A stretch of DNA of 64,000 nt, from positions 6,301 through 70,300 of the forward strand of contig DAXK01000045.1 in NCBI GenBank assembly GCA_002506365.1. The letters are read 5' to 3'. This document shows positions 29,563 through 62,866 of the stretch, one piece after another. The position numbers and the translations under genes were made by a program. Below the pieces are notes generated by a model that did not search any database, had not been told where the DNA came from, and saw only the letters and a program-made list of their open reading frames with translations. Numbering within the stretch: the stretch's first letter is position 1; every line of letters starts with the position of its first letter. The DNA comes from an archaeon UBA583. GTDB lineage: Archaea > Nanobdellota > Nanobdellia > Woesearchaeales > UBA583.

Positions 29563-32500
29563 TTATTTTTCTTTATTTGTTGAAAATTCTTTCTCAATAA
29601 CTTCATCAATCATAGTATAAAATTCTTTCTTATTACAATTATATAACTCATTTTTAATAATAGTTCTAGATTTTCCAATTTTAATTGAATCCGCTACATA
29701 TTTTTTAAAAATTCTATGATTTGCTCTAGACTCCTCACTATTTAAATAATTTTTTCTAACAACAATAATTCTAACAAACACAACAAAAGCTAAAACAAAA
29801 ACTCCAGCTAAAACATAAATCATAACTCTAGAATCCTCCTCAACTACTTCACTCTCATAACTTTCATTTAAAATTTCTTGATTTGTAAGATTTATATCTT
29901 CAACTTTTAAATCCTCGCCCTTTACCTTATCTGTAATTTCATCTGACATTGTTTTAAAATTTTTAATTTTTAAATCATCATTTTCAGTTTTAACTTTTTT
30001 AACAACTTCAATATCATCATTTTCAGTTTCAACTATTTCTACAATCTCTTCAACATCTTCTACATCCTCCTCATTACTTGAAACCATAAAAGAATCAGCT
30101 TCAATAACCGCACTACTTTTAAGTCCTGAAATTTTATAATAACCTGAACTCAAACTACAATAAAAACCAGAATAAAGTTTATTATCACACTTAAAATAAT
30201 ACTCATTACTTCCCAAACAATTCTTTGAAAAAGAACTAATAGAAGAAATTTCAGTATTTTTTACACAAACATAATCCAAATCTAGATTATTCTTCAAATA
30301 AACTGTCTTATCAAGCCCTAAACTTGAAAATCCCTTTAAAATAATACTTGACCTATCAGTAAAATCATATTTAATTTCAATATCAGATAAATCTAACTCC
30401 TCATCTGAAAAATCATAGCCAAACTCAACTAACTTTAAACTTCCATCTAAAATTAAAACATCCTCTTTTCTTGAAAACTTTGAACTTGAACTTATAGAAT
30501 CCCCATCAACTTTATAATTAAATTTATTATCTTCATCCTTAACTAATCCAAATTCATCTTCTGAAGTAGAACTAGAGCTCCCACCTCCCCCACCTCCCCC
30601 TGAACTTCCACTACTTGATGAACTACAACTTTGAACTAAACTCTCACGAGTATAACTAGTTCCACAAGAATTTAAATCTACAGCAACCCTACTTTGAGAA
30701 CTAGAACTACAAGTTCCCCAACTTCCATAACTCCAATCCTCAGTGCACATTTGAGAAACTCCTGAATGACTCAAACCAGAAATTTTAACCGTTGAATTAC
30801 TCAAATCAGTATAACTAACATTATAACCATTCACAACTTTAGGAATAACATCAACAAAAGTTTCATTATCCCCATCACACAAATCAGAAATTTCATCTAA
30901 ACTTCCAACCTCTAAATCCTTCAAACACAAACTATGTGCCTTAGAAATATTTCCATATAAATCTAAATAAATTGTCTTAGTATTTCCACTCTCTAACTCT
31001 AACCCACTAACAAAAAATTTACTCTTATTACTCTTAACTTCACTTTTAATAATTACCTTTGTAAAATCAATACTTAAATTAGAAAAATTATAAGAAAACT
31101 CAACTAACTTATCAGAATTATTACTAAAACTTACATTTAAAACTTCATCAAAAACCTTACTTAAATTACTGGATAAATTAATAGAAATATTCAAATTACT
31201 AAAACTAGAATCAACATTAGACTCATCCCCAACAACATTATCAACTAAATCACTAACTCCATCATTATCAAAATCAGTAGCATTTCCTCCTAAATTCAAA
31301 CTAAAATTCACAAATAACTCATAAATATCGAAAATTCCTAAATCATCAGTAAAATTAAAACTAATAACTTGACTTGTATAATTAAAAATTGTTAAATTTG
31401 TAACTAACTTATTATTAACAACTAAATCAGTAATATCAATTTTTTTTGATCCAACATTATAAATTAAACTTGAAACATTTTTATTAAAACTTGCATTAAT
31501 AAAAAAATTTAATTTAGAAACATTTACAACTGTATTATTTAAAGGACTATAAATAACTAATTTAGGTAATAAATTAAAAGTAAAATTAATCACTTTACTT
31601 GATTTAATTCCATAAATATCTGTCACATTAAATAAAATACTTTGATTAACAACATCAGTTAAATTTAAACTAATATTTAACCAATTATCACTCAAACTAC
31701 TTGATAAATCTACATAATTTGTTCCATTAAAATAAAATACTTCTGAAATATTTTTACTAAAATTTAAACTAAAATTATACCATAAATCATAATTAGTTAC
31801 AACTGAATCAAAAACAGGACTAACAAAATTAATTCTAGGCTCATTAACTGTAAAATAAACTTTATCAGAACTAAAGATTTTACCATTAATTGAATCATTC
31901 ATAAATACAATAGCTGAATAATTTCCAAATGTTGAAAAGTCATAACTATAATTAAAATAAGTTAAATTCACTTTATTCATAGAATAATTTGTAATACCAT
32001 TATCAAAACTAATCCAGGCACTATCAGAATTATTACTTGAACTTACATTAAAACCTACTATTGGATTATCTAAATTACTCAAATTAATTGGATTGTCTAA
32101 ATTAATACTAACATCTTCAAATAAAGAATTAGTGGAAATCACATATGAGAATGGTTGGGGACCATTTGGCACATTACTTCCCTTAATTTTTAAACTATAA
32201 TTCCCACTATCTGATAACTTAATTCTAATTCCCTCAACATTATTTAATAAATCAACTGAATCATTAAACGGATAACTAAAATCATTTCCAAAATACTCAG
32301 TCCCATCTGGAGAAATTAAAACTAAATCTAAATTATTAACTAATTTATTTCCAGCCCCAACTGAACTAGGATAATCAGTCCAAACCAAAGAAACTCGAAA
32401 TTCTAAACTAGATTTATTAATTGTAAAGTTATATTCATATTCTTGAGAAGTTGAAAGCCCCGAACTAATTTCAAATAATTCTAAACTATTTTTATTATCC

Positions 32501-34062
32501 TCAAAAATCGTCCTATTCAAATCAACAAATCCCCACCCTTGATTCATATCAGGCATAGTTCCAGTAATATCTTTAGCCCCATTAATTAACATTGCTTTAA
32601 CTAACGCAGAAGTAGGACTACTAATACTTTTATTTTTAATTAAATATTCTCGTAATAAAGAAACAATTCCAGCAGTCGTAGGAGTTGCCATAGAAGTTCC
32701 ACTCTTAACACTATAATCTCCACTCCCTCCATTTACATGTGATTTAGTTGAAGTAATTCCTGAACCCGGAGCTACAACATCAGGTTTAATTCTTCCATCA
32801 TCAGTTGGACCTTTTGAACTAAAACTAGCAATTGATAAATCCACCGAACTAGCTCCAACAGTAATTGCATTCTTAGAAGTTCCAGGTGGTAAAACAGAAT
32901 TTGCTCCAGAATATTCACAATTATTTCCACCAGTTCCACAATTCCCTGCAGCAAACAAAATAATCATATCCTTATTATTCCAAGTAAAAGTATCAACATC
33001 AACAGACTCACTAGAATAATCCCCTAAACTTGTAGGATCACCCCAACTATTAGAATGAATTTGAGCACCAAATACATAAGCAGGTTCAAACATCCCAGTA
33101 GCCAAATTATTTGGAACTCCTAAACCAAAATCACTCCCAGTCCAATACTCAAGAGCCTGAAAATATAAATCAGACTTTGGAGCCATCCCAGAATTTGAAC
33201 CAACATAATTATTATTTTCTAAATCAGCTCCAGATAAAACACCATTACCTAAAACTGAACCTGCAACATGTGTCCCATGTCCAGAATCTAAATCGGAAGC
33301 TCCATCAGAACCCACAAGCTCAATAATTTCAACTGACTTATTTAAAAAATCAGCATGGAAAGAAGAATTATGAACTCCAATATCTAAACCAGTATCAGCA
33401 ACTGCTACAATCTGACCCTCACCAAATAAATTAAATTCATTAAAATAATTATAAACATTAGTTGTAGACTTAGAATTAACATTTTGAATTTGCGGATAAC
33501 TATAACTATAAATAAAATTAACCTGTTCATACTCCTCTAAAAAAGAAACTTTAGACTTATCAATTAAAATAAGTAACCGTCCATTATCTGAAGAAATAAT
33601 TTCCCCACCTAAACTTAAAACTTCATTCTCAAATAAACTTGAAACTGATTTATCAAATAAATGAACTTTAAATAATTCTGGACTTAAAACATTAAAATTT
33701 GATACTCTAAAATTTTGAATTTCCTTAGTTTTCTCAATTTTTTCATTATTACTATCTTTATTTTTTTTAAATCTTTCAACAGATTTAATAAAAGAAAAAT
33801 CAGAAACTTCATCAACAATATTTTTATCAAATTTAGTTAAAAAAGAATTATCTCCAACATAAGAAATAAAAAAAACTCCAATATTTTCCAAACTATCCTT
33901 ATCCTCTTGATAAATTAAATCTGAAAACTCAACCACAAAATATTTATCAGTCGATTCAACAAAAGATGGAACTAAATCAAAATCCTCCCCTTTAGAAAAA
34001 CCAGAAACTAATACTATTAAAATTAAAAAAAAAATACTAATAAATTCAAAAAATTTTCTCAT
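29563..34062 (-). CDS. Giant (1499 aa) secreted, membrane-anchored subtilisin-like serine protease (peptidase S8)
   Basis: N-terminal signal peptide. Catalytic triad motifs VAVADTGLD, HGTHVAGSV and GTSMATPTTAG. Long beta-rich N/S-rich extension, Gly/Ser linker SGSSGGGGGGGSSSS, C-terminal TM (VLAGVFVLAFVVFV) and a basic tail. Confidence 0.85.
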   Translation of the reverse strand: MRKFFEFISIFFLILIVLVSGFSKGEDFDLVPSFVESTDKYFVVEFSDLIYQEDKDSLENIGVFFISYVGDNSFLTKFDKNIVDEVSDFSFIKSVERFKKNKDSNNEKIEKTKEIQNFRVSNFNVLSPELFKVHLFDKSVSSLFENEVLSLGGEIISSDNGRLLILIDKSKVSFLEEYEQVNFIYSYSYPQIQNVNSKSTTNVYNYFNEFNLFGEGQIVAVADTGLDIGVHNSSFHADFLNKSVEIIELVGSDGASDLDSGHGTHVAGSVLGNGVLSGADLENNNYVGSNSGMAPKSDLYFQALEYWTGSDFGLGVPNNLATGMFEPAYVFGAQIHSNSWGDPTSLGDYSSESVDVDTFTWNNKDMIILFAAGNCGTGGNNCEYSGANSVLPPGTSKNAITVGASSVDLSIASFSSKGPTDDGRIKPDVVAPGSGITSTKSHVNGGSGDYSVKSGTSMATPTTAGIVSLLREYLIKNKSISSPTSALVKAMLINGAKDITGTMPDMNQGWGFVDLNRTIFEDNKNSLELFEISSGLSTSQEYEYNFTINKSSLEFRVSLVWTDYPSSVGAGNKLVNNLDLVLISPDGTEYFGNDFSYPFNDSVDLLNNVEGIRIKLSDSGNYSLKIKGSNVPNGPQPFSYVISTNSLFEDVSINLDNPINLSNLDNPIVGFNVSSSNNSDSAWISFDNGITNYSMNKVNLTYFNYSYDFSTFGNYSAIVFMNDSINGKIFSSDKVYFTVNEPRINFVSPVFDSVVTNYDLWYNFSLNFSKNISEVFYFNGTNYVDLSSSLSDNWLNISLNLTDVVNQSILFNVTDIYGIKSSKVINFTFNLLPKLVIYSPLNNTVVNVSKLNFFINASFNKNVSSLIYNVGSKKIDITDLVVNNKLVTNLTIFNYTSQVISFNFTDDLGIFDIYELFVNFSLNLGGNATDFDNDGVSDLVDNVVGDESNVDSSFSNLNISINLSSNLSKVFDEVLNVSFSNNSDKLVEFSYNFSNLSIDFTKVIIKSEVKSNKSKFFVSGLELESGNTKTIYLDLYGNISKAHSLCLKDLEVGSLDEISDLCDGDNETFVDVIPKVVNGYNVSYTDLSNSTVKISGLSHSGVSQMCTEDWSYGSWGTCSSSSQSRVAVDLNSCGTSYTRESLVQSCSSSSSGSSGGGGGGGSSSSTSEDEFGLVKDEDNKFNYKVDGDSISSSSKFSRKEDVLILDGSLKLVEFGYDFSDEELDLSDIEIKYDFTDRSSIILKGFSSLGLDKTVYLKNNLDLDYVCVKNTEISSISSFSKNCLGSNEYYFKCDNKLYSGFYCSLSSGYYKISGLKSSAVIEADSFMVSSNEEDVEDVEEIVEIVETENDDIEVVKKVKTENDDLKIKNFKTMSDEITDKVKGEDLKVEDINLTNQEILNESYESEVVEEDSRVMIYVLAGVFVLAFVVFVRIIVVRKNYLNSEESRANHRIFKKYVADSIKIGKSRTIIKNELYNCNKKEFYTMIDEVIEKEFSTNKEK

Positions 34063-36062: not shown

Positions 36063-39000
36063 TTAATCATTTTTATCATCTCTCTTTAAATATTTTTTAT
36101 TATTAACAACATCTAAAGCCTCCAAAGTTTTTTTTTCATAATAATTATCCAATATCTCAAAAGTTCTTTTCTTACTAAAATTAATTTTATTATAAATAAA
36201 AAATCCACAAATAAACAAAATCAAAAATATGCTAATATACCCCTCAACCCTAAATGTTTGATTACTACTTAAAACCTTAATAACATTTCCTCCACTTAAA
36301 CTACTATTTGTATTATTATTAGTATTCAATTTATTCTCTCCAAAAAATCCAAAATCTAAACTATTCTTATCATTCAAAGTAATTTGCTCAGAATTCAACT
36401 CTAAAACAACCCCATGTTTTAATCCATAAATTAAATATAAATCATTCCAATTATCACACCTTAAACTATTAAAATATTTTCCATCACAAGTTAAAACAAA
36501 TTCATTATTTTCTAAACAATTTTCAGAAACATCACTAACACTATTTAAACTCCCTGAATACTTAACACAAACTTTATTCAAATTATTTTTATTTTTTAAA
36601 TAAATAACTGGATTTGTAACTAATTGAGTCAAACCTGAAACAATAACATAATTACTTTTATCACCTAACTCATCACTCACAATATTTAATGTTTCCAAAT
36701 TTAAATTAGAATAATTAAAATTAAACTCAAAACTAACTATCTTTAAATTATCAACAATTAAATCAATACTTTTAATACTCTCAAACTTAGAACTTTCATC
36801 AATTTTTTTTAAATCAACTAAAACATCAAAATTACTCAATTCATTAAAAAAAATCAAATTTCCATTTCCATCTCCACTATTAAAATTCTGAGTATCCACA
36901 AAAACATTATCCGAACTTAAAGATTTTTTTTTATTTTTTCTACTACTAGAACCTCCTCCACTACTTTTAACAACAGTAGAAACTATTTCACAACTCTGAG
37001 AAAGGTTCTCCCTTGTAAAACTAGTCCCGCAAGAGTTCAAATCAATAGCACTTCTTTTCATAACCCCATTATCACAACTAGACCAACTAGAATACTCCCA
37101 ACTCTCAGAACACATCTGATAAACTGCTGAATGAGTTAATCCTGAAACAAAAACAAATATTTTATTATCTTTATATTTTTTCTCCACCTCATAATTATTA
37201 TACTCAAATGGGAAGGAATTAACATAATACTCATAAGACCCATTACAACTCAAACTAAAATTAAAATCTTCAACAAAATTATCACTCAAACAAACTCCAG
37301 AATTCTTATTCTTATCACCAATTAACTCAAAACGAATAGTCTTACTCTCATTATTAGATAAATTAACTCCCGAAATAAATAATTTAGTTAAATTATTAAA
37401 ATTATTTGTTTCAAATTTAATATTTGATAAATTTATAGATTTATTATCATAAAGCTCAAAATTAAATCTATTATTTGAATTATTATCATAAAAATATAAA
37501 TTATTATTATTTCTCTCAACTGACAAATTCAAATTAATTTCTCCAAATAAACTCAAATTAAACTTATCTTTATCTAAAAATCTTTCAAAACTTAACTTAT
37601 GTAAAATAAATCCATCTAAAGTTTTTTCATAAATCTCAAACCCAAAAAAATAAATCTCAGGAGAAATATTAAAAACTCCATTATAAGAATTATTCAAAAC
37701 TTTATCCGATAAATCAATATACTTATTCTCAAAACCTAACTCTATATACTTAAACAAATTCCCATTTTCTAAAAACTCATCAGAAAAATTAATCTCAAAC
37801 TCAAACTCACTTTGATTACTTAAATTAAAATAAAATAAATCTTCATTATTATAACCATTCTCCTCAGACTCCCAATAACTTAAATTAATTAAATAATTAA
37901 ACTCTAAAGGTAAAATCTCTTTAATCTCAGAATTAACTTTAGAAACTACAACTGAAAATGATTGATTCTTTAAAGTTGTAATATTAAATCCATAAACAGA
38001 TAAACTATACTCTCCTAAAACCAATTCATCAGAATTTACAACAATTTGTTCAATATTATTTAATCTATCAAAATCTCCCTCATCAGAAAAATCATTCCCT
38101 AAATACTCAACACCATCCTCAGATACAACCCTTAAATCTAAATCATTAACTAAACCTAAACCAGGATAATCAGACCAAACCAAAGTTAATTTTAAATCTG
38201 AACTTAAATTTGTAACATTAAAACTATAATTAAAAACTCCTCCATGTCCAATCCCAACTAACTCATCAACAAATATTAACTCACGATTATTACTCTCATC
38301 AACAGAACCTTTCAAATCCACAACTCCAAAACCATAAACATTATCTGGTCCAACAACTCCATTATCCTTAGCCCCATTAATTAATGCAGCTTTAACCAAA
38401 CTTGAAGACACAACATCAAAACTTTTATTTTTAATTAAATACTCTCTAATCAAAGCACTAACTCCCGCAACTAAAGGTGCTGCCATAGAAGTTCCACTTT
38501 TACTTTGATAATCTCCAGACCCTGATGCAAAACTTGAACGTGTAGATGTAACAGAACTTCCCAAAGCCACAATATCAGGCTTAAACCTTCCATCCTCAGT
38601 TGGTCCACGAGAACTAAATCCAGCAATATTAAATCCATCTGAACTAGTTGCTCCAACCGCAATTGAATTTTTACTAGAAGACTGTAAAGTAACACTACTA
38701 CCTCCAGAACTCCCATAATTCCCTGTTGCCATAACAATAGTAAAATCAAAATTATTGTAAATAAATTCATCAATATCATAAGAATGAGATAAATATTTAC
38801 CCAAATTATTTCTATTTCCCCAACTATTAGAATGAACTCTAACTCCTTGATCATAAGCTGGACCAAATAAATTATTTAAATTATTTGGAATTGAAAGAAC
38901 ATATTTATTATAATAATTCCCACAATACATAGAATTATCACACAAAATCTCAATTGCTTGAAAAAATAATCCAGCTAATGGAGCAGTTCCAGATTTTGAA

Positions 39001-39617
39001 CTTGAAAAATTCCTACTAATAATGTCCGAACCTGACAAAACACCAGTCCCAACAGCAGACCCAGCTACATGAGTCCCATGCCCATTTACATCAGAAGTTC
39101 CATCATTATTTAAATTTCCATCTCCAACCTCATATAATATTACAGTTTTATTTCTAAAATCATTATGAATATTTGATAAATCTCCAGTATCTAAACCAGT
39201 ATCAGAAATTCCAATAATTTGACCTAATCCATACAACCCAAAATTATCAAAAAAATAATTAACATTCAAAAACTCTTTTCCCTCCACATTTTGTTTAACT
39301 GGGAAACTAAAATTTTCAACAAATTCAACATACTCAAGTTCGGAAATAATATTCACACTTAAACTATCTAAACCAAACCTAACTCTATTCTCAGAAACTA
39401 AAAATATTTCCCCTCCTAAATTTAAAATATTATTTGATAATTCTAAAACAAACTCATCAGAAGATAACTCAACTAAATAGACTTCAAAATCATTAGAATT
39501 CAAATTAATAAAATTATTATCATTAACTTGAAGTTTTTCATCATATTCACTAAACCCAAAAAAAAAAGAATTTACAAAAAAGATAAATAAAATAAATAAT
39601 TTTATTTTTTTTAACAT
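36063..39617 (-). CDS. Second giant (1184 aa) membrane-anchored subtilisin-like serine protease (S8), paralogue of 29563..34062
   Basis: GISDTGLDTG, HGTHVAGSA and GTSMAAPLVAG. It shares a Cys-rich module with the first protease (GLTHSAVYQMCSESWEYSSW..DLNSCGTSFTRENLSQSC vs GLSHSGVSQMCTEDWSYGSW..DLNSCGTSYTRESLVQSC). C-terminal TM plus tail. Confidence 0.85.
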   Translation of the reverse strand: MLKKIKLFILFIFFVNSFFFGFSEYDEKLQVNDNNFINLNSNDFEVYLVELSSDEFVLELSNNILNLGGEIFLVSENRVRFGLDSLSVNIISELEYVEFVENFSFPVKQNVEGKEFLNVNYFFDNFGLYGLGQIIGISDTGLDTGDLSNIHNDFRNKTVILYEVGDGNLNNDGTSDVNGHGTHVAGSAVGTGVLSGSDIISRNFSSSKSGTAPLAGLFFQAIEILCDNSMYCGNYYNKYVLSIPNNLNNLFGPAYDQGVRVHSNSWGNRNNLGKYLSHSYDIDEFIYNNFDFTIVMATGNYGSSGGSSVTLQSSSKNSIAVGATSSDGFNIAGFSSRGPTEDGRFKPDIVALGSSVTSTRSSFASGSGDYQSKSGTSMAAPLVAGVSALIREYLIKNKSFDVVSSSLVKAALINGAKDNGVVGPDNVYGFGVVDLKGSVDESNNRELIFVDELVGIGHGGVFNYSFNVTNLSSDLKLTLVWSDYPGLGLVNDLDLRVVSEDGVEYLGNDFSDEGDFDRLNNIEQIVVNSDELVLGEYSLSVYGFNITTLKNQSFSVVVSKVNSEIKEILPLEFNYLINLSYWESEENGYNNEDLFYFNLSNQSEFEFEINFSDEFLENGNLFKYIELGFENKYIDLSDKVLNNSYNGVFNISPEIYFFGFEIYEKTLDGFILHKLSFERFLDKDKFNLSLFGEINLNLSVERNNNNLYFYDNNSNNRFNFELYDNKSINLSNIKFETNNFNNLTKLFISGVNLSNNESKTIRFELIGDKNKNSGVCLSDNFVEDFNFSLSCNGSYEYYVNSFPFEYNNYEVEKKYKDNKIFVFVSGLTHSAVYQMCSESWEYSSWSSCDNGVMKRSAIDLNSCGTSFTRENLSQSCEIVSTVVKSSGGGSSSRKNKKKSLSSDNVFVDTQNFNSGDGNGNLIFFNELSNFDVLVDLKKIDESSKFESIKSIDLIVDNLKIVSFEFNFNYSNLNLETLNIVSDELGDKSNYVIVSGLTQLVTNPVIYLKNKNNLNKVCVKYSGSLNSVSDVSENCLENNEFVLTCDGKYFNSLRCDNWNDLYLIYGLKHGVVLELNSEQITLNDKNSLDFGFFGENKLNTNNNTNSSLSGGNVIKVLSSNQTFRVEGYISIFLILFICGFFIYNKINFSKKRTFEILDNYYEKKTLEALDVVNNKKYLKRDDKND

Positions 39618-39934: not shown

Positions 39935-41557
39935 TTAACTTGCTATAAGTTCATATGAATCAAAAAAAACATCAGTTCCAACTTGAAATATATTTAATTC
40001 ATTATGAGTGTCAGAACCTTCAAAAATTAAATTAATGGAATCATTAATTGGATTAAATTCATAAATTTTAGGACCTATTCCCCCTCCTTGTGGACTCCAA
40101 TATTTTTGAGTGATATATAATTTATCTCCAAATTGATACATCTCTACTTGATCTCCAACATTTAAATATCCATCAAATGTTGAAACCATTGAAAAAGTAG
40201 TTCCATTAAATTTTCCAACATTATAATCAGTTGACCCATCATCAACTCTAAAAATAAATAATTCATTTCCAATCTTAAAAATTTGAGAATTTGAACTTGT
40301 AAATGTATTTAAACTTCCACCTCTAAAATCTGTAACTCTTGTAATTGTTGACCCATCATATTCAAATAATTCTTGTCCAGTTGACCCATCATTATGAATA
40401 AAATATAATTTTCCATTTAACTCAGTATATTCATAAGGTCTAGTAAAACTATCTCCTGGTCTAATATCTTGAACAAGATTTGTAGTAACTCCATCTGATT
40501 CCCAAACCTCAAAACCTTGTGAACCATTTCTTGCACTAAACACTACTTTATTATTAAAAACAATTAAATCTCCAGTCAAACTATCTCCAACTCCAGAAAC
40601 AATATCTGCAACATTTGTTGTAACTAATGAAGTTGTTGTTTTATATAATTCATTTCCAAAAGTAGCAGAATTTCCTGCAAAATATAAATCTCCATTATAT
40701 GGAGTTAAACTTCCAAAATACCCACTCTCAGAAGCTCCAGGATAATAATCTTGATCAAAAGAAATAGTAGTTCCATCAAAACTAAATAATTCTTGTTCAC
40801 TAGATCCATTTTTAGAAATAAAATAAATTTTATTATTAAACTCTGTAATAGATGAAACCATTACATAACCAATAATTGAAGTTGGAATATAATCAACCAA
40901 ATTTAAACTTGGAGGAGAAGTTAAAACTTCATAAACTCCTGCTTTAATAGAATCATTATAATAAAATAAATAATTTTTTCCATTAAAAGAAAAAGAATTT
41001 TTACTAAATAACTGACCTAAATTTAAATTATGTTCAACTAAATTAGTTCCAGTGATTTGAGTATCTCCTTGACCTCCCTTTAATTCATTATCAACAAACT
41101 TATAACTCTCAAAAATCCCATCATCCGTAACAACAACAATATTAGCTGACCCAGAAACATTATCCAAACAACTTGAAATATTAACTGAATCTAAACCTGA
41201 AACACTACCATTAAAATTACAATCAACATCATTAATTTTAATAGAATTAATAGAAGAATTCCCAGCTGAGTTTACATATAATTTTTCTCCAACTAATCCT
41301 TCAACAGTCACAGAGTTTGAAGAGCTAGTTTGAGTTTCAACATCCACAAAAACTCCAGAACTAAATGTTGTGAACCAACCTTGAAATCCAACTACAGCAG
41401 TTACAGCAATTACTAAAAGTAAAGCAGTAGCTACAACTGGACTTATAGCTTTATTACTATAAATTAATTTTTTTATTTTAAATTTAAACATAAATATTAA
41501 TTTAATTTTTTTCATTATAAATATTTTGTTTATATAAAATAAATAACTAAATAACAA
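39935..41557 (-). CDS. Pilin-like (class III signal peptide) protein with ELWxxDGT-type beta-propeller repeats; the real start is probably an internal Met (about 41515 or 41491)
   Basis: KAISPVVATALLLVIAVTAVVGFQGWFTTFSS. Repeats ELFSFDGTT, GFEVWESDGVT and ELFEYDGST, each spaced by about 45-50 aa. Confidence 0.6.
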   Translation of the reverse strand: MLFSYLFYINKIFIMKKIKLIFMFKFKIKKLIYSNKAISPVVATALLLVIAVTAVVGFQGWFTTFSSGVFVDVETQTSSSNSVTVEGLVGEKLYVNSAGNSSINSIKINDVDCNFNGSVSGLDSVNISSCLDNVSGSANIVVVTDDGIFESYKFVDNELKGGQGDTQITGTNLVEHNLNLGQLFSKNSFSFNGKNYLFYYNDSIKAGVYEVLTSPPSLNLVDYIPTSIIGYVMVSSITEFNNKIYFISKNGSSEQELFSFDGTTISFDQDYYPGASESGYFGSLTPYNGDLYFAGNSATFGNELYKTTTSLVTTNVADIVSGVGDSLTGDLIVFNNKVVFSARNGSQGFEVWESDGVTTNLVQDIRPGDSFTRPYEYTELNGKLYFIHNDGSTGQELFEYDGSTITRVTDFRGGSLNTFTSSNSQIFKIGNELFIFRVDDGSTDYNVGKFNGTTFSMVSTFDGYLNVGDQVEMYQFGDKLYITQKYWSPQGGGIGPKIYEFNPINDSINLIFEGSDTHNELNIFQVGTDVFFDSYELIAS

Positions 41558-42166: not shown

Positions 42167-44047
42167 TTATAACGTTTCTCGACCAATCTTTTCATATAAT
42201 TTATAATACCAATCAACAAATCCATAAACTTTCAAATTTACAGGCATAAAAAATCCTAAATCATCCTTTTTAGCAAAATTATCTAAAAATAAACTAGCAT
42301 CAGCTTTATCTAAATAAACTTTAAATAATTGTTCATAATTTTTAATTGTCCATCCCGCAAACTTATTAAAACTCTCTTTTGACATATCAATCTTAAGGTT
42401 TTCATTTTCACAATCAAAATTTAAAACTCCAGTTTCAAACAATCCAGTTAAATGAACTAAACCTTCACAATAATATGGCCAAACTGATTTAGTTTTCTTC
42501 CAAGCAATTAATTTTACAGCCCTCTCAACAACATCATAAAAAACTTCTTTCCAATAAGTTTCAACTTCATCTGATTTAAAAAAAGAAACTAAACCTCCAG
42601 TTGTAGCTTTATATTCCTCAATATTTTTAAAATTTCCAGACCCATTCATCTTAATTTCAGAATCACATCCTTTCCATAAAATATGTCCAAACTCATGCCC
42701 AATTGTAGAAATTGAATATATTTTATGCCAAATATCAGGAGTTTCACAAGCAACTTTTTTCAATTCATCTAAAAACTCTTTTCCAAAAACTTTATTAGAT
42801 AACTTCATATTTGGAGCAGTTTTCTCTAATTCTAAAATAAAATCAGCAAAAGCAAAAATTTTCTTTCCTCTCTTAGAACTTACAAATTCATCATTTGGAA
42901 CAACTTGAGCTGAAAAAAATCCATGAAAAAATTTTGCAAAATATAATAATGGTTTTCCAACATATAATTGAACATTATCTAATCCCTCAAGTGAAACAGA
43001 CTTAATATCTAAAATATTATTACAATCCAAACAATTTGAATCATTACTTAAATACTCATTATACATACTTTTTGTAGCAGATACAACTGTGCTAGCATCA
43101 TTTCGCTTAGGATTTACAACTCTTAAATCCCACTCAATCTCCACACAATTTCTAATATTATCATTATAATACTCCATACAATGTCCTACTTGAATTGGAC
43201 AATCAACATCCATCCAAGCAAAATCAACATCACGCCAAACAGAAATTAAATTATCGCAATCTCTTTCAGATAAAGCATGAATTAAACTCTCAAAATACTT
43301 ATTCCAATTATCTTTCATATCAAAAACATCATCAGACAATTCATCTAAAACTAAAATTAAATCATGTAACTTAGAACAAATCTCATCAACTTCAACTTCA
43401 AAAAATTCTCCATAACTTTGAGTTGAAAACCCACAACTTGAATCTTCATCTTCAACTAAAATTGAATAACTTCTATCTCCAATAGATCCATCAGGTAATT
43501 TATCCATTAAATTATTCTTATGAACAAAGCTAATAGCTTCTTGAACTTTATTATCAAATTTATTTAACAAAATAGAATTAATCTCATTTATAGCAGAATC
43601 CCAAGAAACATCTAATTGAGTAAAAGAAATACCAATTGATTTCACACCTTTAATTAATTCTCGATAAAATGGAGTTAATAACTCTTTTTCCTCCATTTCA
43701 TAAATTAATTCTTCAAACATTGAAATATGATAACTTCCAGCCCAACTATAACTAGATGCTAATATCTCTTTTTTAGATTCTGCATCTAAATCATTACTTT
43801 CAATTTCAGAAATTAAAAAATCATCCTTTAAAGTAACTAATCTACGAATTACAGATAATCTATTTTTATCATTTTTTTCAAACTCAATTGATTCTAAAAA
43901 ATCATCAATAAATTTAGCTTTTTTTTTATCTCCAAACTCATTTTCTTCAAAACACTTGTAAAAAGAATTCAAATTAGCATTTAAGCCATTTGAAATCTCA
44001 TAAACCTTTTGTAAATCATTCATAAAATCAGTTTTTAAATCAGTCAT
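42167..44047 (-). CDS. Large cytoplasmic protein with an HEXXH zinc-metallopeptidase motif (626 aa)
   Basis: ..SISTIGHEFGHILW.. followed by acidic residues about 20-25 aa downstream (..NIEEYKATTGG..), which is gluzincin-like. No signal peptide. Family not recognised. Confidence 0.45.
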   Translation of the reverse strand: MTDLKTDFMNDLQKVYEISNGLNANLNSFYKCFEENEFGDKKKAKFIDDFLESIEFEKNDKNRLSVIRRLVTLKDDFLISEIESNDLDAESKKEILASSYSWAGSYHISMFEELIYEMEEKELLTPFYRELIKGVKSIGISFTQLDVSWDSAINEINSILLNKFDNKVQEAISFVHKNNLMDKLPDGSIGDRSYSILVEDEDSSCGFSTQSYGEFFEVEVDEICSKLHDLILVLDELSDDVFDMKDNWNKYFESLIHALSERDCDNLISVWRDVDFAWMDVDCPIQVGHCMEYYNDNIRNCVEIEWDLRVVNPKRNDASTVVSATKSMYNEYLSNDSNCLDCNNILDIKSVSLEGLDNVQLYVGKPLLYFAKFFHGFFSAQVVPNDEFVSSKRGKKIFAFADFILELEKTAPNMKLSNKVFGKEFLDELKKVACETPDIWHKIYSISTIGHEFGHILWKGCDSEIKMNGSGNFKNIEEYKATTGGLVSFFKSDEVETYWKEVFYDVVERAVKLIAWKKTKSVWPYYCEGLVHLTGLFETGVLNFDCENENLKIDMSKESFNKFAGWTIKNYEQLFKVYLDKADASLFLDNFAKKDDLGFFMPVNLKVYGFVDWYYKLYEKIGRETL

Positions 44048-46526: not shown

Positions 46527-47342
46527 TCATTCAATAATTACTTTAATAGTTTCAGTATGATAAACTTCACCATTTGTTAAAACATAACCAACTCTAAAAT
46601 AATTAACTCCCTTCTCTAACTTTTTAGTTAAAATATCAAACTTATGTTCATTAACATCTTGTCCAACAAAAACAGCAGAAGTTTCAGGATAAGTCATATC
46701 AGGATTATCATTAGAAATTAAAACCTTATAATACTTAAACATCTCCTTATCATCTAACTTTTCCCATTCAACAGAAACTAATTGTTTTTCTTTATCATAC
46801 TCAACTTCAATTCCATCAGCTTCAAACTCTAACTCATCATCCTCTCTTTGATCTTCAAAATCCTCATTTTCAAACTCTTCTTCATCAGATTCATCTTCAA
46901 ATCTTTCCCTTTCTAATTCTTCTAATTCCTCTTCTAATTCTTCAATCTCATCAAGCATTTCATTATACTCTTCTTCAAGTTCCTCAAATTCTTCTTCTAA
47001 CTCATCAATCTCATTAAATTCTTCATCCAATAAATCACCTAACTCATTTTCAGAACCAATTTCTTCATCATTTTCAAAATCTTCAAAAACTTCATCAACT
47101 AAATCATCCTGATAATTCTCATCACCATTTTCATTAACTTGTTCATCTCTATCACAAATATTATTGTTATCAACATCCAAACAACACTCAATTCCAACTC
47201 TAATATATGGAGCATTACAAACTACTGCTTTTTCTGAAATTCTTGCAAGATCTTCATCTGAAACTTCAGTTAAATCTACACCTGCACAACCTGTCAAAAA
47301 CAAAGTCCCTAACATTGTAAAACCAATACTTTTCTTTTTCAT
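46527..47342 (-). CDS. Acidic lipoprotein (lipobox LTGC) with a Cys-rich segment and an extreme E/D-rich region
   Basis: MKKKSIGFTMLGTLFLTGC|AG. CNAPYIRVGIECCLDVDNNNICD. About 90-aa E/D-rich low-complexity tract. Confidence 0.45.
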   Translation of the reverse strand: MKKKSIGFTMLGTLFLTGCAGVDLTEVSDEDLARISEKAVVCNAPYIRVGIECCLDVDNNNICDRDEQVNENGDENYQDDLVDEVFEDFENDEEIGSENELGDLLDEEFNEIDELEEEFEELEEEYNEMLDEIEELEEELEELERERFEDESDEEEFENEDFEDQREDDELEFEADGIEVEYDKEKQLVSVEWEKLDDKEMFKYYKVLISNDNPDMTYPETSAVFVGQDVNEHKFDILTKKLEKGVNYFRVGYVLTNGEVYHTETIKVIIE

Positions 47343-47444: not shown

Positions 47445-48734
47445 TTATTTAAATTCTACAATACCTGAATATAAAAAATATAAAAATTGATGATAATTAA
47501 TTGGTTCCAAAGTTAACTTAAAATCCTTTTTTCTAACTAATTTATACAAACTATCTTTTCCAGCATTATAACTAACTCCAATCATAAACAAATCAATATA
47601 ACTAAAAGGATGAGTCCCATAAATATTAATATCTAACTCTTGCATAAAATTAATTAAATTTAAAATTCCAGCCTCAATTAATTCATCATCACTAGCAGAA
47701 CTAAAATTTTTCTTTTTAGTAAATCTTTCATAAGTTTTAGGCATAACTTGAATTGGTCCACGAGCCCCAGCATGAGATGTGCTAGAACCATACCCATAAG
47801 AAGTTTCAATTAAACATAATAAATTAACTAATTTAGAATTCACATTTAATTTATTTGATAACTTATCAATTTTCTCTCTTAACTGAGGATTTAAAGAAAC
47901 TGAATTAATTGAAAACTTAGTAATTTCACTTAATTTATGAATATTAATATCTGACAACTCTAAACCTTTTTTATTAACATGTCTAAGCAATCTTAACAAC
48001 AATTTATCAGAATCTTCTTTTGAATAAATATAATCAATAATTTTTTTTTCAATTAATTTAGGGTAATCTTTATAATTCACACCTTTATCATTCATAAAAA
48101 CTCTCAAACTAGAATACTTAATTTCATTAATCTTATTATTAAACCAATTAATTTCAGAATCAACATCACCGAGCAAGGAACCTAAATTCTCAAATAAATA
48201 TTTTTTAACCAAAACTGAATAATACCTATCTCTCATAAGTAAAAATAAAATTCTTAAATCTTCCAAAAAATTTTTCTTTAATAATCCTTTTTCAATATTT
48301 AAATTTTGTAACATAATCTCAAAAACTGGTTTTAAAACAAATCCATTTTCACTATAAAAATTCGATCTTGATATTCCCATATACAAAATTCCCATAATAA
48401 AATTATATCCCTGTTCATCTAATTTTTCTTTAATAATTTTTTTCTTTTGATAAAAACCAGCATTACTATAACCTGCTGGAAAATTAAACTCATACCAAAC
48501 TGAAACATAATAATCAAATAAAACTTGACACTCATCAACACTTAACTCTTCTTTAAAATGTAATTTTTTAATAACATAAGATAAATCAATTTTATCATTT
48601 GAACTTAAATTACCACTTTGATAACTAGAATTTGAACTTAAGCTAGGTTCAGCACTAATTTTACCTGAACCAAAACCAGCAGCTAAAAGACCAGTTCCAA
48701 ATATTTTTTTTAAAAAACTTCTTCGAGTATCCAC
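47445..48734 (-). CDS. Tat-secreted protein with a C-terminal lytic transglycosylase (SLT, GH23-like) domain
   Basis: Twin-arginine signal MDTRRSFLKKIFGTGLLAAGFGSGKISA. SLT catalytic region ..LIETSYGYGSSTSHAGARGPIQVMPKTY.. (compare ES....S.AGA.GLMQ.MP.T). Confidence 0.6.
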   Translation of the reverse strand: MDTRRSFLKKIFGTGLLAAGFGSGKISAEPSLSSNSSYQSGNLSSNDKIDLSYVIKKLHFKEELSVDECQVLFDYYVSVWYEFNFPAGYSNAGFYQKKKIIKEKLDEQGYNFIMGILYMGISRSNFYSENGFVLKPVFEIMLQNLNIEKGLLKKNFLEDLRILFLLMRDRYYSVLVKKYLFENLGSLLGDVDSEINWFNNKINEIKYSSLRVFMNDKGVNYKDYPKLIEKKIIDYIYSKEDSDKLLLRLLRHVNKKGLELSDINIHKLSEITKFSINSVSLNPQLREKIDKLSNKLNVNSKLVNLLCLIETSYGYGSSTSHAGARGPIQVMPKTYERFTKKKNFSSASDDELIEAGILNLINFMQELDINIYGTHPFSYIDLFMIGVSYNAGKDSLYKLVRKKDFKLTLEPINYHQFLYFLYSGIVEFK

Positions 48735-48902: not shown

Positions 48903-49616
48903 TTATTTTTTAGAATTTAATTTTGATTTTTCACTACATTCCAAATCATTTAACCAATTAATAACTAAATCTACTCCAATCTTATAAAAAAAATTAGTTA
49001 AATCATTAATCTCCTCAAAACTAGAACTCTTAGCAGACTTTCCACCATGAACAATTGAATGCCTTTTTCCTAAAATTACTCGTAATCTATCAATTCTTCC
49101 TTTTTCCAAATCAAGTAACTTAAAAAAATCTAAACCAATTAAATCAAATGCTTTTCTAATTGAATCTAAATTTTGAAACTTATAATTTTGTGAAATAATT
49201 TCTCCCTTTGTAATTTTCCCATCTTTATACAAATCAATTTCAGAAAATGTAAACTTTTTATTAAAATCCAAAACACCTTTTGACTCAGAAAATTTATGAT
49301 TAATTAACTCAACAAATAAATCTCTAAAAAAACTCTCAAAATATGTAATTAAAGAAGTTAAATACAAATTATAATTTATATTATATATATTCTCATTAAT
49401 TAAATTTTCATGTGAAGTTTGAACAATACTTCCAAGTAACGAACCATCCATAGATGAAGAAATAGAATTTACATCAAATTGTTTAAAATAATGATTTAAA
49501 TTATCTTGAAATTCCATATGTTTATCTTTTAACAAATTATGTCCAGTTGAACTAAATTTAATTCTAGTTAAATTAGAAAAATAATTCTCAACAGGATAAG
49601 TAATATTTTTATTCAT
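48903..49616 (-). CDS. Hypothetical protein with a possible C-terminal HEPN-like Rx4H motif
   Basis: ..ILGKRHSIVHGG.. gives R-x4-H in a predicted helical context. Otherwise unrecognised. Confidence 0.3.
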   Translation of the reverse strand: MNKNITYPVENYFSNLTRIKFSSTGHNLLKDKHMEFQDNLNHYFKQFDVNSISSSMDGSLLGSIVQTSHENLINENIYNINYNLYLTSLITYFESFFRDLFVELINHKFSESKGVLDFNKKFTFSEIDLYKDGKITKGEIISQNYKFQNLDSIRKAFDLIGLDFFKLLDLEKGRIDRLRVILGKRHSIVHGGKSAKSSSFEEINDLTNFFYKIGVDLVINWLNDLECSEKSKLNSKK

Positions 49617-50703: not shown

Positions 50704-51489
50704 TTAATTTAAAATATGTAATAAAAACTTATCACCAAGTGAACCCATTAATTCTTGAGAAGTAGTTTTAAACTCAATACATCCAGTCTCTGAATCATAC
50801 AAAACTTCATTACTTGTATAATCTGAATCAAATAAAATCAATTTATTAGAAAGTGTTGAATCAGCACAAGTAATTTCATCAGAACTAATAATATCTTCTA
50901 AAGCATTTAAAGGAAATCCAAACCCAATACTCATTAAAGTATATAATCTTCCAGAAACTTTCACAACAGCCCCATTACTTGAAGGTTTTGAATTAAAAAT
51001 AAAATCAAAAGTTTCAGTCTCAAAAAATTCTTCTTTACTAATTCCAATTTTATAATTTAATTTTTCAATATCATCTAAATTATTATAAAACTGCATATTA
51101 ATAGTTTTCCCATCTACCTCAAAAGGATATTTATATATTTCAACATTTACTTTAGTTTCTTCAGACTTTTTAGATGAAGATTTTTTAGTTTCAACTATTT
51201 CCTTTTTTTTAATTTCTTCCTTAATTTCTAAAACTTCTGATACTAATTCCTCATTAGTTGAATCCTCTTTAACAATTTGAGGTTTTTCTTTAACTTTTTC
51301 AATTATTTCTTCAGATAAAGTTTCTTTTTTCTCAATTTCATCAGCAATATTTTCAACTTTTTTTAAATCTGAATTATTAACATTTTCAACAGAATTATTT
51401 AAAATTTCACTTGAATTCACTTCTGAATTAACTCCAACACATCCTGCAATAAACGCAATAAATATTAATAAAATAAAATTTTTATTCAT
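50704..51489 (-). CDS. Lipoprotein (lipobox IAGC) with a K/E-rich linker
   Basis: MNKNFILLIFIAFIAGC|VG followed by a low-complexity KEEIKKKE region and a C-terminal globular domain. Confidence 0.45.
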   Translation of the reverse strand: MNKNFILLIFIAFIAGCVGVNSEVNSSEILNNSVENVNNSDLKKVENIADEIEKKETLSEEIIEKVKEKPQIVKEDSTNEELVSEVLEIKEEIKKKEIVETKKSSSKKSEETKVNVEIYKYPFEVDGKTINMQFYNNLDDIEKLNYKIGISKEEFFETETFDFIFNSKPSSNGAVVKVSGRLYTLMSIGFGFPLNALEDIISSDEITCADSTLSNKLILFDSDYTSNEVLYDSETGCIEFKTTSQELMGSLGDKFLLHILN

Positions 51490-61465: not shown

Positions 61466-62866
61466 ATGAGTTTTATAAAACCAACAAACAAAAATAAATT
61501 AATGGTAGAAAAAAAAACACCAGTTTCTAAACCTAAAACAAAGGAAAAAGAAACTAAAATGAAGACTTCAAAAGAAAATTCAAAAGTTAAAACAGAAGAA
61601 AAAAAAATTGAAGAAAAAAAAGTAAAAACTAAAAAATCAACAACTAAAAAATCAGAACCAAAAAAAAAAGTTTCTAAAGCTTCTGATTCAAAAAAAACAC
61701 AAACTAAATCAACTAAAAAAGTTGAAGAAAAAAAAGTTGAAACTAAAAAATCAACAACTAAAAAAACTAAAAAGAAAATTAGTGAATCAAAACTTTGGAA
61801 AGTTTTATCATTAGTATTAGTAATTGTAGTAGTATTTTTAGCATTTGCAATTGGAATTAAATTCTTTACTGGAACTTCATCAGATGATTCATTTGAAAAA
61901 GAATTAGATAAAAAAGTTGAAGACTTAAACAATCCAATCCTAACAACACCATCAAATACTGATGTTTCATTACTAATTGTAGAAGATAAAAATTGTGCTA
62001 ATTGTCAAGTTGACTTTTTAGCTGAACAAATTAAATTAAACTTAATTCCAAATTTAACAGTTGAAAAAACACAATTCGATTCAGACGTAGGTTCAGCAAT
62101 CACACAACAACTAGGAATTAAAATTGTTCCTGTTTTTCTATTTAGTAAAAACTTAGAACAAAGAAAAGATTGGGAAAAATTAGCAAGCGTAATGATCCCA
62201 GTTGAAATTTCAGGAGCTGAATACTTTTTACTAAATCCAATGGCAATTGAATTTAAAACTTTAATTGAAACACCAATTCAAACTGAATCTGCAATCACAT
62301 ACGGAAACAAAGATGCAAAAGTAACATTAGTTGAATTTAGTGACTTTGAATGTCCAGTATGCGCTTTAATGAAAGGAAGTCCTGAATTAACTCAAGAATT
62401 TAAAACTCAAAACCCAACATTCATTCCAACAATTCCAAAAATTATGGAAGAATATGTTGAAACTGGAAAAGTAAAATATGTATTTTATAACTTTCCAATT
62501 GATAGAATTCACCAATCAGCTAGAGCTGCTCACAATGCAGGATTATGTGCTAATGAACAAAATAAATTCAAAGAATATTCAGATGTATTATATCAAAAAA
62601 GATCAAAATGGGTTGAACACACAAATAATACTAAACAAATTTTAACTAACTTTGCTAAAGATTTAGACTTAGATAAATCACAATTTGAAACTTGTATGGA
62701 AACTCAAAAATATAATGATCAAATTGATAGTGAAATGAAATTAGCTCTTCCTTACGGTGTAGCTGGAACTCCAACTTACTTTGTAAATAAACAAATTATC
62801 ACAGGATTAGTTGATTATGAAACATTTAAATCAGTTGTTGAATCTGAATTAGAGAAATCACAATAA
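61466..62866 (+). CDS. Membrane-anchored DsbA-like thiol:disulfide oxidoreductase with a K-rich low-complexity N-terminus
   Basis: K/T-rich repeats (KKVEEKKVETKKSTTKKT x2), TM LSLVLVIVVVFLAFAIGI, then two CxxC motifs (NCANC and FECPVCAL) in a thioredoxin-like context. Confidence 0.6.
   Translation: MSFIKPTNKNKLMVEKKTPVSKPKTKEKETKMKTSKENSKVKTEEKKIEEKKVKTKKSTTKKSEPKKKVSKASDSKKTQTKSTKKVEEKKVETKKSTTKKTKKKISESKLWKVLSLVLVIVVVFLAFAIGIKFFTGTSSDDSFEKELDKKVEDLNNPILTTPSNTDVSLLIVEDKNCANCQVDFLAEQIKLNLIPNLTVEKTQFDSDVGSAITQQLGIKIVPVFLFSKNLEQRKDWEKLASVMIPVEISGAEYFLLNPMAIEFKTLIETPIQTESAITYGNKDAKVTLVEFSDFECPVCALMKGSPELTQEFKTQNPTFIPTIPKIMEEYVETGKVKYVFYNFPIDRIHQSARAAHNAGLCANEQNKFKEYSDVLYQKRSKWVEHTNNTKQILTNFAKDLDLDKSQFETCMETQKYNDQIDSEMKLALPYGVAGTPTYFVNKQIITGLVDYETFKSVVESELEKSQ

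Follow-up and report, generated by a model that had tools for sequence, protein, structure and literature searches.

Within a 64,000-nucleotide window of contig DAXK01000045.1 from the archaeon UBA583 (GenBank assembly GCA_002506365.1, positions 6,301 to 70,300), one minus-strand gene, referred to here as the SLT gene, is best explained as encoding a secreted, highly diverged family-1 GH23 lytic transglycosylase (LT) that belongs to a small DPANN-confined family and would cut foreign murein. We give this explanation a probability of about 0.6, held jointly for the whole of it, including the proposal that the core family is confined to one low-GC (guanine plus cytosine), Woesearchaeota/Pacearchaeota-like DPANN lineage, placed in Nanoarchaeota in GTDB. 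Archaea have no murein and, because the producer is an archaeon without it, any murein target must be foreign.

The SLT gene is complete, with an in-frame TAA nine codons 5' of its GTG start, and encodes a twin-arginine translocation (Tat)-type leader, a linker, a helical N-terminal domain and an SLT domain. The identical protein is on record both in NCBI (whole-genome shotgun project AYRE01, 109 kb contig) and at JGI, representing two independent assemblies. Its nearest homolog, found on Logan contig L001 with 75% identity, likewise starts with GTG and keeps the same leader. Comparison of these two genes gave a ratio of nonsynonymous to synonymous substitution rates (dN/dS) of 0.27 overall, with values of 0.20 for the SLT domain, 0.23 for the N-domain and 0.52 for the leader plus linker; because of this low ratio at 75% identity we conclude that the SLT gene is real and under purifying selection. 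No other open reading frame (ORF) in the window has a Tat-like N-terminus, and no other matched the SLT-domain hidden Markov model in a six-frame search. The gene and its parts are as follows.

47445..48734, minus strand: SLT gene, complete, 429 amino acids plus stop, GTG start (ORF list and sequence).
48651..48734, minus strand: predicted signal peptide, residues 1-28 (sequence; disordered in the model).
48708..48728, minus strand: twin-arginine consensus T3-R4-R5-S6-F7-L8-K9, an exact match to S/T-R-R-x-F-L-K.
48594..48650, minus strand: low-complexity linker rich in Ser and Asn, residues 29-47; two N-x-S sequons, at N35 and N42 (script; model).
47919..48593, minus strand: family-specific all-alpha N-terminal domain, residues 48-272, eight helices as modelled (local confidence about 85-96).
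47448..47918, minus strand: predicted SLT/GH23 family-1 lytic transglycosylase domain, residues 273-429 (hhalign, domain profile, Foldseek, dN/dS).

Assignment of the SLT domain required evidence at the level of the family because the profile match of the single sequence was borderline. The protein carries no precomputed Pfam assignment, a phmmer search of the PDB with it alone gave no match, and a word-indexed single-sequence search returned only the protein itself and one homolog at 75% identity. When 1.84 billion representatives were searched exhaustively by HMMER with a two-sequence profile (E <= 1e-3), only 15 proteins were found, among which were seven further full-length relatives with 24-40% identity (P0004-P0008, P0010 and P0011) and six ordinary SLT-domain proteins (P0012-P0017); P0009, also picked up by this profile, was a repeat-protein artefact. 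The core family has nine members, 354-539 amino acids long and forming about nine 50%-identity clusters among these representatives. Eleven of the 15 aligned family or outgroup proteins matched PF01464 at E <= 0.01, and two core relatives, P0005 (22.0 bits) and P0007 (27.8 bits), passed its gathering cut-off.

Direct comparison by hhalign of the nine-member core family with six canonical SLTs gave a probability of 99.5% (E 5e-23) over residues 273-421. Furthermore, a profile built from the SLT domain only and run against a collection of 5.8 billion proteins retrieved 101 proteins, all 101 with a precomputed PF01464 assignment; most are bacterial, about 205 amino acids long and annotated as soluble lytic murein transglycosylase-like, and the taxa include Pyrinomonadaceae, Chromobacterium, Burkholderiales and Petroclostridium. 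The mixed profile A2 matched Slt70, Pseudomonas aeruginosa Slt, Neisseria LtgA, MltC and MltE in the PDB at E-values of 1e-13 to 1e-7, matches that are only partly independent since the A2 alignment already contained canonical SLTs. PHROG searches gave weak matches to lytic tail proteins, covering the SLT domain only. Other matches were set aside: the coiled-coil and M2-1 structures found in the PDB by the core profile fell in the N-domain and were spurious, and weak matches to GeBP-like_DBD and Pth2 were dismissed as noise because they lay far below cut-offs and were not common to the family. Scanning the contigs of GTDB species representatives with the family alignment located no locus, either because the genome is absent from these representatives or because the patterns were too specific. 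Taken together, the profile comparisons identify the core family as a genuine, very divergent SLT branch.

The predicted active site was read from two alignments, one of 15 family and outgroup sequences and one of 12 sequences restricted to the domain. Canonical family-1 LTs carry four motifs (E-S; G-L-M-Q; A-Y-N-A-G; E-T-x-x-Y), and the equivalents in the SLT protein are these.

47805..47807, minus strand: GAA codon of E310, the predicted catalytic acid/base, motif I, with E-T for the canonical E-S (invariant in both alignments).
47733..47777, minus strand: motif II region S320-HAGARGPIQVMPK-T334, equivalent to S-x-AGA-x-G-L-M-Q-x-M-P-x-T (S320 and G323 invariant).
47559..47573, minus strand: motif III, S388-Y-N-A-G392, equivalent to A-Y-N-A-G (Y389 and G392 invariant).
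47493..47507, minus strand: motif IV, E410-P-I-N-Y414, equivalent to E-T-x-x-Y (Y414 invariant; E410 invariant in the core family).

In the 15-sequence alignment E310, S320, G323, Y389, G392 and Y414 are invariant, and A324, Q329, P332 and N390 are at least 90% conserved; the 12-sequence alignment agrees, with N390 invariant there. The core of motif II reads G326-P-I-Q329 in the SLT protein versus the canonical G-L-M-Q. By HMMER, the family stretch "liEssYG" aligns with RQESAF of P. aeruginosa Slt, whose Glu is E503 in full-length numbering and is replaced by Gln in the inactive E503Q structure 6fcq; E310 also aligns with the Glu of QIESSF in the MltC-like structure 9vi7. Beyond the catalytic Glu, the 12-sequence domain alignment shows no second conserved acidic residue, and for this reason a transglycosylase would fit better than a g-type lysozyme. 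A first-pass annotation of this DNA, made from the sequence alone, had singled out a catalytic block with its Glu in place, which does occupy residues 308-334 (LIETSYGYGSSTSHAGARGPIQVMPKT, of the form LIETSYG...SHAGARGPIQVMPKT), and the Glu it pointed to is E310, invariant in all alignments. The GH23/SLT profile search that it recommended, when run, was marginal for the single sequence and highly significant for the family, and neither of the outcomes it had named as contradicting it (no GH23/SLT profile match; a Glu that is not conserved) was what we found.

Structure prediction points the same way. An AlphaFold model from a two-sequence alignment was unusable (predicted local distance difference test, pLDDT, 33.6), and the nine-member alignment was used instead, giving a pLDDT of 83.3 and a predicted template modelling score (pTM) of 0.79, with residues 1-47 (leader and linker) below a pLDDT of 50. 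Residues 273-429 are modelled as a helical lobe in which E310 ends the helix 300-311 at its C-terminal side and is followed by a short beta region; as modelled, this is a lysozyme-like arrangement with a goose-lysozyme-like alpha-helical fold. Foldseek matched the SLT domain to MltE, MltF, Slt, LtgA, g-type lysozyme and phage LTs (target-normalised TM score, TMt, 0.5-0.62), and all top fold matches in the PDB and BFVD are LT or goose egg-white lysozyme (GEWL) proteins. The N-domain is private to the family: it was present in the nine core members only among the 1.84 billion representatives, and no homolog outside the family was found in Pfam, NCBIfam, the PDB or PHROG.

The leader has the make-up of a Tat signal peptide, with a Gly/Ala/Thr-rich h-region (IFGTGLLAAGFGSG), a c-region carrying K25 and a predicted cleavage site I-S-A28 before E29; because it is Cys-free, it is not a lipobox leader. 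The RR motif occurs in eight of the nine core members, the rest of the leader being unalignable, and the form (S/T/N)RRxFL(K/R/T) is kept in P0002, P0004, P0005, P0008, P0010 and P0011. P0007 seems to be without the motif, which we attribute to a wrongly called start codon, since its cluster-mate P0018 opens with MGVTRRDFLK; the P0006 call, on a 2 kb contig, is cut short at its N-terminus. The leader string reported in the first pass, MDTRRSFLKK, is indeed residues 1-10, and the twin-arginine leader it described stands as a sequence feature, in that the consensus motif is present and recurs in eight of nine orthologs. Provided that the precursor is exported, we consider it probable that it is exported by Tat, and we infer this route rather than regard it as demonstrated because about 84 kb of the contig yielded no gene for a Tat translocase.

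A number of results weigh against the explanation given above. Concerning the enzyme, the SLT protein alone scores 19.2 bits against PF01464, below the gathering cut-off of 21.3 (E 9e-4, residues 289-404); the profile of the core family only reached a best E-value of 0.02 against the PDB, its top matches being LTs; the motif-II Gln is lost in one family member, P0011; no recognisable peptidoglycan-binding module was found in the N-domain; and no peptidoglycan-uptake or recycling genes were seen near the SLT gene. Concerning export, the protein scores 14.4 bits against TIGR01409 (cut-off 16.7), no other Tat substrate was found in the window, where the other exported proteins have Sec, lipobox or class-III leaders, and neither TatA nor TatC was found among the Pfam-scanned window ORFs of at least 120 amino acids (a few being unscanned) or in about 20 kb of flanking genes, a search spanning the roughly 84 kb that a TatA of 60-90 amino acids could escape.

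These export results are also the grounds for an alternative in which the protein is exported but not by Tat, its RR leader being handled by Sec or retained as an uncleaved membrane anchor on the archaeal surface, with the same murein function. This alternative draws additionally on the relatives, which reach at most 16.9 bits against PF10518 (cut-off 22.7), leaving the curated Tat-profile threshold unreached, and on the related DPANN SLTs P0012, P0015 and P0020, which have Lys-rich Sec-type leaders. Both TIGR01409 and PF10518 are short profiles trained mainly on bacterial and haloarchaeal leaders. We nevertheless consider non-Tat export unlikely: the motif persists in eight of nine orthologs that are only 25-40% identical overall while the leader otherwise diverges, a pattern that would be difficult to account for if the motif were not recognised, and a Gly/Ala/Thr-rich h-region with a basic c-region residue is typical of Tat leaders.

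A GH23 enzyme need not act on murein, and the protein could instead be a hydrolase of chitin or of another polymer containing N-acetylglucosamine (GlcNAc). The family does include hydrolases, such as the chitinase of Ralstonia sp. A-471 and g-type lysozyme, and chitinases and g-type lysozymes are among the fold matches (3w6b, 4g9s and 3gxk); the sequence is, moreover, very divergent from characterised LTs and the producer is itself without murein. Set against this, all four family-1 LT motifs are kept, the second carboxylate is not conserved, and every sequence-profile match is a bacterial or phage murein LT, which together make a non-murein substrate improbable.

A further possibility is an adhesin with little or no catalytic activity, which would bind peptidoglycan and fasten the archaeon to bacterial walls without cutting them; attachment has been proposed as one role of DPANN LT-domain proteins (Castelle et al. 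2021, PMC8204110). The strong divergence of the sequence, with E-T in place of E-S and G-P-I-Q in place of G-L-M-Q, could be read in this way, but across the family the catalytic Glu and the Tyr, Asn and Gln of the active site vary little or not at all, and the dN/dS of the domain is 0.20. Pseudo-enzymes usually lose the catalytic residue, and we regard the adhesin as a very improbable reading.

That the target might be the pseudomurein of methanogen hosts or neighbours was raised in the first-pass annotation, and the known hosts of DPANN are archaea; all retrieved homologs, in contrast, are murein enzymes. Pseudomurein contains beta-1,3-linked N-acetyl-L-talosaminuronic acid with a C6 carboxylate, whereas GH23 enzymes cut beta-1,4 linkages. 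Because the C6 carboxylate bars formation of a 1,6-anhydro ring and the linkage is beta-1,3, established chemistry leaves a lytic transglycosylase of pseudomurein a very slight chance, and this part of the earlier proposal is unlikely to hold.

That the gene is not archaeal at all, being a bacterial or phage contaminant, part of a mis-binned contig or part of an integrated virus, as might be suggested by the typical occurrence of SLT in bacteria and phages, the weak PHROG matches, the HEPN neighbour described below and the position of P0015 beside integrase fragments, is likewise hardly credible given that the single 109 kb contig carrying it also encodes FEN1, ArgRS, a proteasome subunit and an A-type ATPase operon, that composition is a uniform 20-32% GC, that the protein occurs in two independent assemblies, that its homologs sit amid archaeal housekeeping genes and that the PHROG matches concern the SLT domain only. 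No integrase, capsid or terminase genes were found near the SLT gene, and a phage or mobile-element origin was rejected on gene context.

The wider gene content supports an archaeal, DPANN-like assignment of the locus. The window, uniform in composition at 20-32% GC, encodes an A/V-type ATPase operon, ArgRS, Dus, a FEN1-type flap endonuclease and a YGR210-type Obg GTPase, and NrdD and a proteasome alpha subunit are encoded on the same contig past the window. The ATPase A subunit is closest (62-65% identity) to metagenome-assembled genomes (MAGs) that bear the label Candidatus Woesearchaeota or Nanoarchaeia; among the 80 matches listed, almost every one is labelled archaeal, and one is labelled Bifidobacteriaceae. 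Contigs carrying other family members are also low in GC (23-32%) and bear archaeal genes, namely Cbf5 with DKCLD and PUA domains, A-ATPase A and B subunits, and IleRS with T2SSE/F; the ATPase A subunit of contig L087 is 78% identical to that of the window, compared with at most 66% for any GTDB representative. The NCBI source of the outgroup SLT P0015 (MCA9497420.1) is a Nanoarchaeota archaeon. The archaeal host assumed at first pass is thus upheld by the kinship of the ATPase A subunit and by the presence of FEN1, the YGR210-type GTPase and the proteasome alpha subunit on the same contig.

Several genes around the SLT gene encode exported proteins. Two giant S8 subtilases of 1,499 and 1,184 amino acids (29563-34062 and 36063-39617, both minus strand) have Sec-type leaders; in each the protease domain covers only about 300 amino acids, the remainder being unannotated, and both probably serve as large proteases that are secreted or sit on the cell surface. 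The products of 39935-41557 (minus strand) and 4777-6528 (plus strand) have archaeal class-III leaders of the type IV pilin-like kind (...KAISPVVATALLLVIAVTAV and ...KKAVHPVVAVSLLLVV, respectively); the latter carries Laminin_G_3 domains, and another Laminin_G_3 protein is encoded at 20496-22958. Directly downstream of the SLT gene (46527-47342, minus strand) is a lipobox protein (LTG|C) with an extremely acidic, Glu/Asp-rich middle and without a Pfam match, and a further lipobox protein (IAG|C) is encoded at 50704-51489. A homolog of the downstream protein (68% identity) lies near the SLT gene on L001, past an inserted opposite-strand gene of 259 amino acids. This acidic lipoprotein gene is the neighbour shared with the closest homolog only, more distant members lying in unrelated housekeeping contexts, and a conserved operon partner was rejected since context varies among those members. 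The neighbouring exported proteins (subtilases, pilin-leader surface proteins and lipoproteins) fit a set of extracellular proteins for degradation or for interaction with a host.

Immediately upstream of the SLT gene (48903-49616, minus strand) lies a gene for a HEPN RiboL-PSP protein (E 4e-10), which may be a defence- or toxin-type RNase and is not kept beside the homologs. Among other neighbours, 42167-44047 (minus strand) encodes a full-length DUF7897 protein of 626 amino acids (E 1.6e-190), and 61466-62866 (plus strand) a DsbA-like/Thioredoxin_4 protein of 466 amino acids whose N-terminus is extended by a long Lys/Glu-rich stretch; another DsbA-like gene (L085, 83-805) is found about 3.5 kb from the SLT-family gene of P0007. 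Past the window end by about 6.8 kb, on the same contig (L093, 19316-20593), is a gene for a protein with CNNM/CBS/CorC_HlyC domains, a family better known as Mg/Co transporters and one that we take to be K03699 (tlyC). K03699 has been listed as a putative pore-forming toxin that co-occurs with GH23 in 'vampiristic' Woesearchaeota (Vigneron et al. 2022, PMC9723730).

Elsewhere in the family, on contigs L083/L084 (P0005), L085/L086 (P0007) and L089 (P0010), two SLT-family genes lie between uvrC and uvrA and the third adjoins a short UvrA_inter-domain gene; this adjacency could reflect a local gene order shared within the lineage, or bacterial genes that were once transferred together. The canonical SLT gene of P0015 (L091) adjoins phage-integrase fragments on a 1.9 kb contig, and mobile elements may be linked to some SLT genes of DPANN. 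Within the 64 kb window, ARAGORN found no tRNA genes and no Rfam family reached its gathering threshold; GC skew is strongly negative over most of it, which matches the excess of minus-strand genes from about 19 to 54 kb.

If the SLT protein is a foreign-murein transglycosylase, as we favor, the precursor would be exported, most likely folded via Tat, and cleaved after I-S-A28. The mature enzyme would then cut the beta-1,4 bond between N-acetylmuramic acid (MurNAc) and GlcNAc in bacterial peptidoglycan by a single-Glu mechanism, leaving 1,6-anhydroMurNAc ends, and the N-domain may place the enzyme on its substrate in the manner of the helical U and L domains of Slt70. The target would be a bacterial wall, belonging to a host, to prey or to a neighbour, which might be breached at the contact site, or from which muropeptides might be scavenged where the bacteria are neighbouring or dead. 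The enzyme would act alongside other exported hydrolases encoded nearby, including the two giant S8 subtilases. A more specific version, in which the core family is a dedicated wall-breaching tool of a DPANN lineage with bacterial hosts or prey, exported folded by Tat and given target recognition by its N-domain, is offered as a tentative and somewhat doubtful step further.

The proposal that some DPANN archaea live as episymbionts, attack bacteria or feed on them is already published, and the SLT protein is a new example rather than a new phenomenon; the present picture of DPANN-bacteria relations is unchanged by this locus. To our knowledge no DPANN archaeon has been cultivated with a bacterium that it parasitises or preys on; murein-cutting enzymes in murein-free organisms are among the few genomic clues to such attack. 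The SLT protein, with a mature form of about 400 amino acids, two domains and a clear predicted catalytic residue, is a compact and tractable candidate for probing activity and host range. Additionally, enzymes of this kind can be divergent enough to escape standard annotation, which calls for caution in CAZy and Pfam surveys. Should the family prove to be a dedicated wall-breaching tool, surveys based on thresholds would systematically undercount the anti-bacterial weaponry of DPANN, and binding or lysis specificity would offer a handle on the bacterial hosts of an uncultivated Woesearchaeota/Pacearchaeota-like clade.

Among known systems, SLT-domain proteins of DPANN, including fam00969, have been described as extracellular and of very great length, up to about 3,000 amino acids (Castelle et al. 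2021, PMC8204110), and the same paper states that Rinke et al. 2013 and Castelle et al. 2015 had observed such proteins before. Reports of SLT proteins in Woesearchaeota and Pacearchaeota go back to 2013. GH23 genes were found in five Lake A Woesearchaeota MAGs, for which a predatory, "vampiristic" lifestyle was proposed (Vigneron et al. 2022, PMC9723730), and a study of oxygen-deficient zones reported such genes in three DPANN MAGs (PMC10936187). Like the fam00969-type proteins, the SLT protein places an SLT/GH23 domain in a predicted extracellular protein of a small-genome DPANN archaeon, with the same proposed role in binding bacterial walls or breaking them down; unlike those profile-detectable proteins, and comparing by description only, it has 429 amino acids, a Tat-type leader and a private N-domain, and falls below the Pfam cut-off.

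The closest architectural parallels are Slt70, Slt and LtgA (1qsa, 6fbt and 5o1j), soluble family 1A lytic transglycosylases from Gram-negative bacteria, which are the top full-length Foldseek matches as well as the top profile matches and which share a helical N-terminal region, a C-terminal SLT domain and the same Glu and motifs. Global superposition is nevertheless poor (TM about 0.26, root-mean-square deviation 17-18 A), and there is no sequence similarity in the N-domain; these enzymes are about 600 amino acids long, Sec-exported and act on their own wall, whereas the producer of the SLT protein has no murein. The catalytic domain is matched best, by sequence profile and in local structure, by small single-domain bacterial SLTs of about 205 amino acids and by phage LTs of lytic tail or virion type (PRD1 P7, phrog_2013 and phrog_14342), but these are only 23-31% identical to it and have neither the N-domain nor a Tat leader, and because the best bacterial SLTs are only this similar no bacterial donor lineage can be named.

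Lastly, Tat-signal peptidoglycan hydrolases of a haloarchaeon have been shown experimentally to kill bacteria, and 35% of archaeal peptidoglycan hydrolases with a signal peptide have Tat-type leaders (PLoS Biol 2025, PMC12352652). These proteins, Woldo and Danwoldo of Halogranum salarium, differ from the SLT protein in their catalytic classes (one is a zoocin A homolog, the other a PF01832 glucosaminidase), in their recognisable peptidoglycan-binding domains and in coming from a haloarchaeon in which Tat is the main export route; they resemble it as archaeal, Tat-signal, peptidoglycan-degrading proteins, and theirs is a case in which such enzymes are secreted against bacteria.

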